Assembly (NCBI GenBank): GCA_035649715.1
Contig: DASRJB010000026.1
Span: forward strand, 1 to 28,376
DNA: 28,376 bases
Reading direction: 5' to 3'
Source of the DNA: Pirellulaceae bacterium
GTDB taxonomy: Bacteria > Planctomycetota > Planctomycetia > Pirellulales > Pirellulaceae
The position numbers and the translations under genes were made by a program. Below the pieces are notes generated by a model, which was not told where the DNA came from, ran no database searches, and worked only from the letters and a program-made list of their open reading frames with translations. Below, piece by piece: positions 24,319 to 27,669 of the stretch. How positions within the stretch are numbered: the stretch's first letter is position 1; each line of letters opens with the position of its first letter.

Positions 24319-27300
24319 TCACGTCCCCGCGACGTAACGCGGATCGATCTTCTCGATCTCCTCCGCCACGGCGGCCACCGTGCTGCGAATCTGCTGCTCC
24401 GTGTGCGCGGCAGTGATGAAGAACCGCAGGCGGGCCTTCTCTTCTTCGACGGCCGGATACAGGATCGGCTGCACGCTGACGCCGCGGTCGAACAGGGCGT
24501 TCGACAAAAGCAGCGCGTGGTACGAATTGCCGGTGATGATCGGCACCACGGCCGTGTTATTGCTCATTCCGGTATTCAGCCCGCGCTGCCTGGCCAGCTC
24601 CAGAAACAACCGCGAATTGGCCTGTAGCCGCTCGATCCGCGAGGGGTCGCGCTGCAGCAGGTGTAGTGAAGCCAGCGCCGCCGCAGCGCCGGGCGGCGAA
24701 AGGCCGCAGCTGAAGACAAAGCCGGGCGAGGTGTATTTGAGATACTCGATCAGCTCCTTGGTGCCGGCGATGTAGCCGCCGCAGCTGCCCATGGCCTTGC
24801 TGAGCGTGCCCATCAGGAGATCAACGTCGCGCGGATCGACGCCGTAATGCTCGGTCAGGCCGCGACCCGTCTTTCCAAGCACGCCCAGCGAGTGGGCTTC
24901 GTCGATGAAGAGCAAGGCCTTGTGCCGCTTCTTAATTTCGACGAATGGCGGCAGTTCGGGGAAGTCGCCGTCCATGCTGTAAACGCCTTCGATGGCGATG
25001 ACCACGCGGTGGTAGTCGCGGCGGACCTCGGCCAGCAATGCGTCCACCGCCCGCCAGTCGTTGTGCGGAAACGGCCGCCGGCGAGCCCCCGAGAGAACCG
25101 AACCTTGAATGATGCTGTTGTGGGCCAGCGAATCGTGCACGATCAGGTCGCCGGGGCCGAACAGGTGCCCGAGCGTCGATTCGTTCGTGCAGTGGCCGCC
25201 GATATAGCAGATCGAATCTTCCAGGCCGTGGAACCGCGCGATCTCGCGCTCCAGCTCGACGTGGACCGTCTTCTCGCCCGAAACCAGCCGGCTGGCCGAC
25301 GTGCTGGTCCCGAACTGGTCGATCGCCACCTTCGCGGCCTGGGCGATCTCCGGATCGCCGGACATGCCCAGGTAGTTGTACGTCGCAAAGCTGATCAGCT
25401 CTCGGCCGTCGATCCGGGCGATGTCGCGGGTCGCCCCTTCGTGCGCCCGGAAATACGGGTTGGGCACGCCGGTCGAGCCGAGCATCGCCATCGTCTGCTT
25501 CAGCCGCTTGTATTCCGGCATCTGGCTGAAGTCGTAACATTCCGGCGGAATCTCGCCTGCTGAGGCCCAATTGGCAGTAGGCCCGGCCGCCGCGTGCCGC
25601 TGCACGCGCGGCTCGGTGCCGATATAGGTCGCGATCGCCGCGGCGACCTCCCGGACGGTCTCGATCTCGGCCAGCACGTCCTCAGGAAACCGCCCGCCAA
25701 ACGTCTCTTCCAGCGTGTTAGCGATCTGCAGCCGCTCGAGCGAATCGAGCCCCAGGTCGGTGACGATATTTGAATCCAGCGCGAGCACCTTGGCCCGCTC
25801 CTTGGCGATCGCCCTGACGTGGTCCATCACAATCTGGGCGATGGCGGGATCGACGTCGGCGAGCGACTTGCCTTCGGCGGATTCTGCCGGAGCGGAGGCC
25901 GCGGGCTGCTCCTCCGCGCCGGCTTCCCAGGCCTTCCACTGCTGAATGATTTGCAGCGAGCCGCCCAAAAACTCTTCGCGGCAGGCGTGCCGCTGGATCT
26001 TGCCGCTGGAGGTCTTGGGCACCGATCCGAACCGTACGAGGATCACCGCGTCCGGCGGCAGCTCGTGCTCGGCGGTTACGGCCTTGCGAACGTCGGCGAT
26101 CACGTCGCTCCAGTCGTCGCGGCGGGTCCGCTCCACCTCGGCCACGATGATCAATCGCTCCCGGCCTTCGAGATCGACCGCGAACGCCCCCACCGCTTGC
26201 GGCTGAATCCGCGGGTTGGCCCGCTCCACGGTCATTTCGATGTCCTGCGGATAGCGGTTCACGCCGCGGACGATGATCAGGTCCTTGATCCGGCCGGTGA
26301 CGAACAATTCCCCCTGGTCGAAGAAGCCCAGATCGCCCGTCCGCAAATACGCCCGGCCGCCGTCGCCGGCCAGATGCGCCCGGAAGGTCTGCTCGGTGTC
26401 GGCCGGGTTGTTCCAGTAGCCCTGGGCGACGCTAGGGCTGTTCACCCAGATTTCGCCGATCTTGTCCGGCCGCAATTCGCGCCGCGACAAGGGATTGACG
26501 ATTTTCACGTGCTCGTCGGGCAGGACGTGACCGCAGCCGACGAGGGCCCGCCCGCCGGCCGCGCTGGCCGCCACGGGCACGACGACCTTGGCGTCGAGCT
26601 GCCGGGCGTCGAACGAGCGGACGATTTTCGGCCGGTTCGCATAGCTGCCGGTGACGATCAGCGTCGTCTCGGCCATCCCGTAGCAGGGATAGTGCGACTC
26701 GGCCCGGAAGCCGTAGGGGCCAAACCGCTCGGTGAACCGCCGCAGCGTTTCGGCCCGCACCGGCTCGGCCCCGTTGAAGGCCACCTCCCACGCGCTGAGG
26801 TCCAGGCCGGCGAGCTGATCGTCGGTGATCTTGTCGGTGCACAGGTCGTAGGCAAAATTCGGCCCGCCGCTGACCGTCGTGCCGTATTTCGTGATCCCGC
26901 GGAGCCAGCGGATCGGCTTCTGCAAAAAGGCCATCGGGCTCATCAGCACCGCGGGCCGGCCGAAGAACATGGCAAACAGCGTCCCGCCGACCAGGCCCAT
27001 GTCGTGATACGTCGGCAGCCACGACAGGCCGCTGCCCTTGCGATGCACCTCGAACGAGTGGCAGATCAGCTGCACGTTGTGCATCAGGTTGGCGTGCGAG
27101 AGCATCACGCCCTTGGGTGTGCCCGTCGAGCCGCTGGTGTATTGCAGCATGGCCAGCGAGGCCGGGTCGATCCGCGGCGGATTCCAGCCGGCCCCTTCGG
27201 TGTCGCTCACGCGGTCGGTCGCCAGCCAGTGCAACTGTTTCAGGCTCGGGGCGTCTTCCAGCAGGTCCTCGATCCGGCCCAGCACGTCCTGCTCGGTGAG

Positions 27301-27669
27301 GGCGGCCTGGGCCTGGCAATCGTCGGCGATCGCCTTGATCCGCTCCATATTGCGGTTCCGCCGCGGCGGAAACGCCGGCACCGCAATCACGCCGGCATAC
27401 AGGCAGCCGAACCAGGCGACCACGAACTCCAGCCCCTGCGGATAGAGCAGCAAGGCCCGCTGGCCCGTCAATCCCAGGTCCGTGAGCCGGGCCGCGATGG
27501 CCCGCGCGTGGCGGTCGAACTGCTCGTAGGTCAGCGCCTGCTCCTGGTCCTCGCCGTCGGTGTAGTAATAGGCCGTTTCCTGCGGCTGCTGCTCGGTCCA
27601 GTAGCGCAGCGAATCGATGAGGGTCGTAGTCGGCGGCGAAAACGGCGCGACGAAGCGTTTCAGGTCCAC
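24319..27669 (-). CDS. Tridomain fatty acyl-AMP ligase - acyl carrier protein - PLP-dependent alpha-oxoamine synthase
   Basis: FAAL: [51 protein letters not shown]: LGLDSL. AOS: [29 protein letters not shown]. Confidence 0.93.

Follow-up and report, generated by a model that had tools for sequence, protein, structure and literature searches.

A gene joining a fatty acyl-AMP ligase, a carrier protein, and an alpha-oxoamine synthase

The window analyzed here, that is, the whole stretch of DNA under study, is the entire 28,376-nt contig DASRJB010000026.1 of a Pirellulaceae bacterium. Positions 24319-27669 of its minus strand (stop codon included) hold a single open reading frame (ORF) with a GTG start and a stop-free translation of 1116 amino acids, in which a fatty acyl-AMP ligase (FAAL), an acyl carrier protein (ACP), and an alpha-oxoamine synthase (AOS) are fused. 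The coding sequence is complete, as its orthologues align with it from residue 1, and only some 700 bp of sequence are visible upstream. Pfam searches of the protein identified an AMP-binding domain at residues 23-419 (5e-70), a DIP2-like AMP C-domain at 463-577, a PP-binding domain at 616-679 (7.9e-11), an Aminotran_1_2 domain at 757-1100 (2e-48), and no further domain. KS, AT, KR, and TE domains were not found in the fusion protein by Pfam, and there is no KS or AT domain anywhere on the contig. We also found no reductase, acyltransferase, or bio gene among the sizeable ORFs of the contig, nor any lipid gene elsewhere on it. An earlier note, which a model had made from the sequence letters, described the same pared-down layout, and its reading of the individual domains was confirmed, as detailed below.

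The FAAL domain occupies residues ~15-580 (25930-27627, minus strand) according to the two Pfam matches, and its best matches in the PDB are FAALs. The core motifs of ANL adenylation enzymes are present, namely YTSGSTG at residues 177-183 (27121-27141), TGD at 444-446, and GKIQR at 556-560. A MAFFT alignment with Escherichia coli FadD and the orthologue of Pirellula staleyi places the FAAL-specific insertion region at 26521-26643 (minus strand), where the protein has two stretches that FadD lacks (residues 343-351 and 367-383), both of which lie after the YGMAET motif and before the VKIVNP strand. In the FAAL family, an insertion at this position blocks the conformation in which a CoA thioester is formed, and acyl chains are handed to a carrier protein rather than to coenzyme A (CoA). 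All solved structures that matched the domain at E<=1e-70 are fatty acyl-AMP ligases, the best of them 7R7E (2.5e-175), followed by 3KXW, FadD32, FadD23, 3PBK, and FadD28. Identity to 7R7E, a FAAL deposited as “polyketide synthase”, is approximately 58% as estimated by eye from the printed alignment. The claim of an intact FAAL with the insertion of its family is thus well founded.

The acyl carrier domain follows at residues 616-679 (25633-25824, minus strand) and is recognized by its PP-binding match and its GLDSL motif (residues 640-644). The phosphopantetheine-bearing serine of this motif, Ser643, has its codon at 25741-25743, exactly where it had been predicted. The catalytic core of the pyridoxal phosphate (PLP)-dependent AOS domain comprises residues 746-1105 (24355-25434, minus strand), an assignment based on the Aminotran_1_2 match, the motifs, and the placement of the domain in a clade described below. 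The predicted PLP lysine in GTLSK (residues 954-958) is Lys958, the Schiff-base residue, with its codon at 24796-24798, and the domain also carries TYNYLGM at residues 763-769 and HNS at 850-852.

Conservation and distribution in the Pirellulales

More than 4000 database proteins matched the fusion at E<=0.001. The best 120 matches all had the same domains, and every one of these with a named source came from Pirellulales or Planctomycetota, including Pirellula staleyi DSM 6068 and Anatilimnocola aggregata. Across 82 full-length orthologues from different species, the ACP serine, the PLP lysine, and the HNS, DEAHS, SMDGD, and YTSGSTG motifs are invariant or nearly so; Ser643 is kept in 82 of 82, and K958, H850, D923, and H926 of the AOS domain are likewise invariant. 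On average, the orthologues are 59% identical to the window protein in the FAAL, 66% in the ACP, and 66% in the AOS domain, but only 22% in the linker between FAAL and ACP. We rejected the possibility of a chance ORF or a pseudogene, as the catalytic motifs are kept in these 82 orthologues while the linker diverges.

Whole-genome searches recovered the fusion in 194 of 201 sampled Pirellulales genomes (143/146 of the high-quality ones), representing 114 of 118 genera. We also searched 251 genomes sampled across the phylum, a set that held almost no Pirellulales, and the ACP-AOS half was matched (E<=1e-90) in only 7 of them. Two of these were the window's own genome and a relative of the same family, and the five from outside the family comprised two AOS domains fused to a polyketide synthase (PKS), two stand-alone proteins, and one FAAL-ACP-AOS fusion. 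Because of this difference between the order and the phylum, we conclude that the fusion is a near-universal and largely order-specific core gene of the Pirellulales. Clusters with the same three-domain layout were also found in other phyla in the ESM Atlas. The layout itself was catalogued previously as ‘A-CP-PLP2 (AOS)’ in Blastopirellula marina (A3ZWL3) and Microscilla marina (A1ZVW4) (Milano et al. 2013, PMC3870968). The domain order in that catalogue is identical and one of its examples is from the Pirellulales, but the proteins were listed there without a substrate, product, or distribution.

The AOS domain belongs to a carrier-fed clade

Comparison with curated NCBIfam models did not place the AOS domain in any AOS family with a defined cut-off. 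The best model by raw score was bioF (TIGR00858; 346 bits against a cut-off of 426.45), followed by the CFB-type (Cytophaga-Flavobacterium-Bacteroides) model of serine palmitoyltransferase (SPT; 318/640), Kbl (310/460), the beta-proteobacterial (278/500) and alpha-proteobacterial (223/670) SPT models, and CqsA/LqsA (NF005526; 157/428). The three canonical SPT models are, in the order given, NF047600, NF047599, and NF047603. Matches to solved structures were similarly spread over the superfamily, with 237 bits for a Thermus AOS/KBL, 233 for the Sphingobacterium SPT, 216 for E. coli KBL, and 82 for CqsA. The domain is 33-37% identical to BioF, Kbl, ALAS, and CFB-type SPT, and 21% identical to a bona fide CqsA from Vibrio, a reference that itself scores 610 bits against its family model.

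Closer relatives outside the phylum came from a tblastn search of plasmid records, with 47-56% identity, and each is linked to a carrier protein. For example, the window AOS is 54% identical to a stand-alone AOS on a Pseudomonas plasmid, encoded directly after a type I PKS of the composition KS-AT-DH-ER-KR-ACP, and 54% identical to its equivalent in Caballeronia, which likewise follows a KS-AT-DH-ER-KR-ACP PKS. It is 47% identical to the RkpG-like protein of a PKS and AOS pair that lies beside capsule genes in Sinorhizobium meliloti, a locus that we take to be the rkp-1 region with RkpA, RkpG, and RkpH; a literature search on “rkpG” returned peptide-string matches only. Identity to the AOS domains of a KS-AT-DH-ER-KR-ACP-AOS fusion in Planktothrix and a KS-AT-ACP-AOS fusion in Streptomyces is 53-55%, and an ACP-AOS protein of Bacillus cereus is also among these carrier-linked relatives.

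To compare the domain with the established families, which the earlier note had suggested, we inferred three maximum-likelihood trees with IQ-TREE (LG+C20+F+G4), the final one with 35 sequences. The references in the final tree were BioF and Kbl of E. coli, the genome's own BioF and Kbl, annotated ALAS, CqsA above its cut-off, and, as the only SPT, one of the CFB type (486 bits against the Sphingobacterium SPT structure, PDB 8GUH). The Pirellulales AOS domains form one clade with the SgaB/RkpG-like proteins and the PKS-AOS and ACP-AOS fusions (100/100), and this carrier-fed clade was recovered in all three trees with an ultrafast bootstrap of 100 and an SH-aLRT of 99-100. It is separate from BioF/Kbl (94/96), CFB-type SPT, ALAS, and CqsA, the last of which is the most distant branch. 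We therefore rejected BioF, Kbl, CqsA, and ALAS as identities of the domain, which falls below the cut-offs tested (bioF, Kbl, and CqsA) and outside these clades in the tree.

This placement bears on two alternative functions. One is a role in biotin synthesis, in which the fusion would activate pimelate and produce 8-amino-7-oxononanoate, an idea encouraged by the leading raw score of bioF and by databases, in which homologues are labeled “8-amino-7-oxononanoate synthase”. Against it, the score lies below the bioF cut-off, the domain is outside the BioF/Kbl clade, the FAAL is most similar to long-chain FAALs, and no bio genes are nearby. The genome also has a separate BioF on contig C573 (437 bits, above the cut-off) and a Kbl-like protein (456 bits against 460), so the window AOS is not needed in either role, and we consider a biotin enzyme exceedingly unlikely. 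Both E. coli BioF and the genome's own BioF read SNDYLGL and HAS where the window protein reads TYNYLGM and HNS, a difference already pointed out in the earlier note.

The other alternative comes from the earlier note, which had proposed a long-chain aminoketone that would be either a 3-ketosphinganine-like precursor or a signal of the CAI-1 or LAI-1 kind. The first option is clearly favored by the 47-55% identity of the AOS to the SgaB/RkpG clade, while the second, a diffusible alpha-hydroxyketone or aminoketone, appears very improbable to us. Such signals do arise by the same class of chemistry, from an AOS and an acyl thioester, but the low CqsA/LqsA score, the low identity to Vibrio CqsA, and the position of CqsA in the trees all argue against it, and a sensor kinase is not conserved near the gene in the 83 related loci that we compared.

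In another genome of the window's family (G024), we observed a 2555-aa polyketide synthase of the composition KS-AT-DH-ER-KR-ACP-AOS (L113:919-8586, plus strand). Its AOS domain is 59% identical to that of the window and nests among the FAAL-ACP-AOS sequences, which suggests an exchange of loading and extension modules ahead of a single lineage of AOS domains. In this protein, as in the Planktothrix and Streptomyces fusions, a C-terminal AOS of the same clade (53-59% identical) off-loads a carrier-bound acyl chain through a decarboxylative condensation. The difference is that these proteins carry chain-extension domains, whereas nothing but a loading domain and a carrier precedes the AOS in the window protein. 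The terminal AOS domains of RedL/PigH and SxtA are more distant examples of AOS that off-load a carrier.

Further AOS genes were noted. Some genomes of the family have a second FAAL-ACP-AOS paralogue, which in genome G145 (L114:818-4126, minus strand) is 1102 aa long and which also occurs in G195 and G024. Its identity is only ~40%, and its AOS domain sits on a long branch that does not belong to the SgaB-type clade. The window's genome has a fourth, divergent AOS of 466 aa on contig C474 (L115:8071-9471, minus strand), which is below every NCBIfam cut-off. It is head-to-head with a sulfotransferase-family gene (9471-10709, plus strand) and near a gene for a threonine-aldolase-like PLP enzyme (11719-12795, minus strand), and the locus may belong to a module for sulfated or sulfono-aminolipids. 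A conjugative plasmid of Bacteroides xylanisolvens encodes an AOS (L100:3926-5161, plus strand) that adjoins a gene for a MACPF-domain protein. Its best NCBIfam match is CFB-type SPT (399 bits against a cut-off of 640), and it belongs to a large family of close relatives from gut metagenomes. The matches listed in a homologue search with a Bacteroides plasmid AOS were all at least 69% identical.

Relationship to characterized serine palmitoyltransferase systems

One member of the carrier-fed clade has been tested. In Pseudomonas fluorescens MYb115, the sgaAB genes, which encode an iterative PKS and an AOS, make long-chain sphinganines, and the AOS, PfSgaB, is an SPT specific for serine, with 3-ketosphinganine as its product (Peters et al. 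2025, PMC12134224). Homologous sga clusters were surveyed in the same study in Burkholderia, Bordetella, Methylobacterium, Sinorhizobium, Pseudomonas, Rhizobium, and Caballeronia, and all four proteobacterial genera examined here (Pseudomonas, Caballeronia, Sinorhizobium, and, among the best matches, Methylobacterium) are in that survey. We took the PfSgaB sequence from Figure S6 of that paper and compared nine motifs with 113 positions in total. The Pseudomonas plasmid AOS matched at 107 positions and is for this reason a close SgaB homologue. The S. meliloti protein matched at 81 and the window protein at 80, while BioF, Kbl, ALAS, CqsA, and the Bacteroides AOS matched at only 44-53. The T/S-YNYLG and HNS motifs of the window AOS are exactly the PfSgaB forms, which means that the features that set it apart from BioF are the signature of a known clade. 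A C-terminal arginine of the window AOS, R1081 in RLRFF, aligns with R.RFF of PfSgaB-type proteins, as read in the window protein. An N-terminal extension at residues 700-745 (25435-25572, minus strand) shares with PfSgaB the pattern PE.Y.F...PxY..L...P(Y/F)F ahead of the catalytic core, in an unscored comparison by eye.

The SgaB-like and RkpG-like proteins fall as far short of the curated SPT cut-offs as the window domain does, and for that reason its low SPT scores are no argument against SPT activity. Beyond the shared AOS clade (47-54% identity), motifs, and N-terminal extension, the fusion is predicted to have in common with the PfSgaA/SgaB(/SgaC) system an acyl donor that sits on a carrier-protein arm and not on CoA. 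They differ in how the chain is supplied and how the proteins are arranged. SgaAB relies on an iterative KS-AT-DH-ER-KR-ACP PKS to assemble the acyl chain, and its AOS is a protein of its own. In the fusion, there is no PKS, the FAAL is predicted to load a ready-made fatty acid, and the three parts form one polypeptide. No SgaC-type reductase gene lies near the window gene, which is an order-wide core gene and not part of an accessory cluster.

A second comparison is offered by Caulobacter crescentus and other Proteobacteria, in which the separate proteins AasR, AcpR, and Spt make 3-oxosphinganine, with Spt preferring acyl-ACP; this route is proposed to steer free fatty acids toward sphingolipids (Padilla-Gomez et al. 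2022, PMC9386255). The three-step logic is that predicted for the fusion, with a dedicated acyl-ACP synthetase that charges a dedicated ACP with a free fatty acid for the SPT, independently of CoA, but the Caulobacter system consists of three proteins and has a canonical proteobacterial Spt. The window protein instead is fused, has a FAAL of the type that loads PKSs, and has an SgaB-type AOS that misses the canonical SPT cut-offs. Based on these comparisons, we interpret the protein as a putative PKS-less, FAAL-primed, single-polypeptide variant of carrier-protein-dependent SPT systems. Ding et al. 2024 reported 138 Planctomycetota metagenome-assembled genomes from the Black Sea with “Spt-like” proteins, some of the matches being parts of longer proteins, and the supplements of that study say nothing on whether these matches are the FAAL-ACP-AOS fusion.

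The relationship to PfSgaB also bears on the choice of amino acid. It is conceivable that the same mechanism uses alanine, glycine, threonine, cysteate, lysine, or another amino acid and yields a 1-deoxy-type or non-sphingoid aminoketone, and with it an undescribed class of aminolipid. Specificity shifts easily within AOS families, a single member of the clade has been assayed, the window AOS is 54% identical to an SgaB-like protein and not nearly identical, and no canonical downstream sphingolipid genes were found nearby. The motifs that line the active site are, on the other hand, common to the window AOS and the serine-specific PfSgaB, and we regard a different amino acid as unlikely.

Upstream region and gene neighborhood

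The sequence ahead of the gene contains a GGAG at 27681-27684 and, ~38 nt upstream of the start, a sigma-70-like promoter match found by a consensus scan (CTGACA, an 18-nt spacer, and TAGAAT; 27707-27736, minus strand). The scan yielded 1 site where 0.5 were expected, and the match is not in itself evidence of function. A palindrome built of heptamers can be read at 27717-27798, between the stop codon of the upstream gene and the FAAL-ACP-AOS gene, and the promoter match overlaps its proximal arm. The palindrome is likely a terminator or insulator, which would make the gene its own transcription unit; together with the sigma-70-like match, and to the extent that a consensus match allows, it suggests that the gene is transcribed separately.

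The other sizeable ORFs of the contig encode MetH, TerC, a cytochrome c protein, a molybdopterin oxidoreductase, planctomycete DUF1549/1553 and DUF1501 proteins, a lipoate ligase-like protein, and an ExeA-like ATPase with two envelope-type partners. The last three genes (20222-24294, plus strand) are co-oriented and convergent with the FAAL-ACP-AOS gene. The first is an ORF without a family match, the second encodes a tyrosine-kinase/chain-length-determinant-like protein with weak NCBIfam matches only, and the third encodes an ExeA-like AAA ATPase of the XrtA/PEP-CTERM type (TIGR03015, 174 bits, below the cut-off).

To identify partner genes, we clustered all ORFs of the 83 related loci all against all, and no biosynthetic partner was conserved beside the gene. 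The recurrent neighbors were genes for a BBP7-like barrel, KsgA, L13/S9, riboflavin synthase, Rex, and a sugar-isomerase-like TIM barrel. The commonest was the convergent BBP7-like beta-barrel gene, which lay within 1.5 kb downstream in 19 of the 67 loci whose downstream sequence extends that far and, at any distance, in 24 of the 83; the others are housekeeping genes. A short-chain dehydrogenase/reductase (SDR) gene lies directly upstream in Anatilimnocola, but this is not general.

The neighborhoods of the SgaB-type relatives raise the question of what becomes of the product. On the Pseudomonas and Caballeronia plasmids and in S. meliloti (loci L092, L093, and L095), the PKS and AOS pairs lie amid genes for capsule biosynthesis and export, KpsF, lipoteichoic acid (LTA)-synthase-family, and LpxC-like proteins. 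This context of the SgaAB/RkpAG pairs hints that a surface polysaccharide may be anchored by their product, a sphingoid or phosphoglycerol-sphingolipid, and a lipid anchor of this kind has been proposed for the rhizobial rkp-1 region (RkpA/RkpG/RkpH). By analogy, the base made in the Pirellulales could be a lipid anchor or carrier of a surface polysaccharide and not a bulk membrane lipid, a possibility that relates to what happens to the product and does not conflict with a sphingoid starter enzyme. The window gene is indeed convergent with the chain-length-determinant-like, bacterial tyrosine kinase-like, and ExeA-like trio, but that trio is not kept beside it in the 83 loci, where the commonest neighbor is the BBP7-like gene, and no RkpJ/KpsS-like match was found in the window's genome, which is 71% complete. 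We consider a polysaccharide anchor quite improbable in this case.

Proposed function

We propose, and hold it to be reasonably probable, that the fusion is a self-contained enzyme that starts the synthesis of a sphingoid-type lipid base. The predicted logic of the domains, in which the FAAL loads its own ACP and the AOS condenses the acyl chain with an amino acid under loss of CO2, is supported in that it fits every sequence test that was run. The most likely product would be a 3-ketosphinganine-like base, for which we infer the amino acid and the downstream steps, and in the Pirellulales the fusion probably catalyzes the first step toward a sphingoid-type lipid. Its near-universal presence in the order suits a structural lipid more than a strain-specific metabolite. 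Our analysis goes beyond the earlier note in that the motifs are recognized as the signature of a known clade and the gene as an order-wide core gene, with a layout catalogued in 2013.

As judged from its family, the FAAL would adenylate a free long-chain fatty acid. The acyl group would then pass to the phosphopantetheine arm on Ser643 of the built-in carrier and not to CoA, a transfer presumed from knowledge of the family and from the carrier domain fused directly downstream. The AOS would bind an amino acid, most likely L-serine because of its relationship to SgaB, as an external aldimine at Lys958, a role assigned by homology. Deprotonation of the bound amino acid would lead to a decarboxylative Claisen condensation with the tethered acyl thioester, and the release of a long-chain 2-amino-3-ketone (3-ketosphinganine or a close analogue) would free the carrier arm. 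As product release regenerates the free arm in this scheme, neither a thioesterase nor a reductase domain would be needed.

Several observations weigh against this proposal. The trees do not resolve the branching order of the major AOS clades, and because of this SPT activity could be confined to the SgaB subgroup within the carrier-fed clade. The amino-acid specificity is extrapolated over ~54% identity from one tested enzyme. In the 83 loci, the gene has no conserved neighbor for a KDS (3-ketodihydrosphingosine) reductase, a ceramide synthase, or another lipid-tailoring enzyme, and tblastn searches (E<=1e-5) of the window's 71%-complete genome found none of the Sga/Rkp cluster partners (GNAT, LTA-synthase-like, PhyH, and RkpJ-like proteins), only generic SDR matches. 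A phosphopantetheinyl transferase (PPTase; PF01648), too, had no match in this genome. It is present in a genome of the same genus (G156) and in 3 of the 4 other relatives searched, and we infer that its absence reflects the incompleteness of the assembly. In the literature searched, we found neither work characterizing any FAAL-ACP-AOS fusion nor reports of sphingolipids from cultured Pirellulales, searches on Planctomycetes and Pirellula returning environmental or catalogue papers only.

A broader and more tentative proposal, which we consider possible but doubtful, is that all Pirellulales constitutively make sphingoid-type long-chain bases with a one-polypeptide FAAL-ACP-SPT of the non-canonical SgaB lineage. 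Reduction and N-acylation would then be carried out by enzymes that are unrelated to, or not clustered like, bCerS/CerR or KDSR.

Implications for planctomycete lipid biology

If this order-wide proposal is true, the Pirellulales would have a further independent bacterial pathway to sphingolipids, or a new aminolipid pathway, and would represent an unrecognized environmental source of sphingolipids. Bacterial sphingolipid synthesis is now traced through canonical Spt, bCerS, and CerR, and a fusion of the SgaB type would be overlooked by this approach or taken for BioF. If the fusion makes sphingoid bases, an order of abundant aquatic and soil planctomycetes would become a sphingolipid source, which would bear on how environmental lipid biomarkers are read. 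The gene would also provide a compact, CoA-independent, single-gene module that leads from free fatty acids to long-chain bases, and as a natural fusion, it lends support to the acyl-ACP-dependent SPT mechanism that was shown for the separate Caulobacter proteins.

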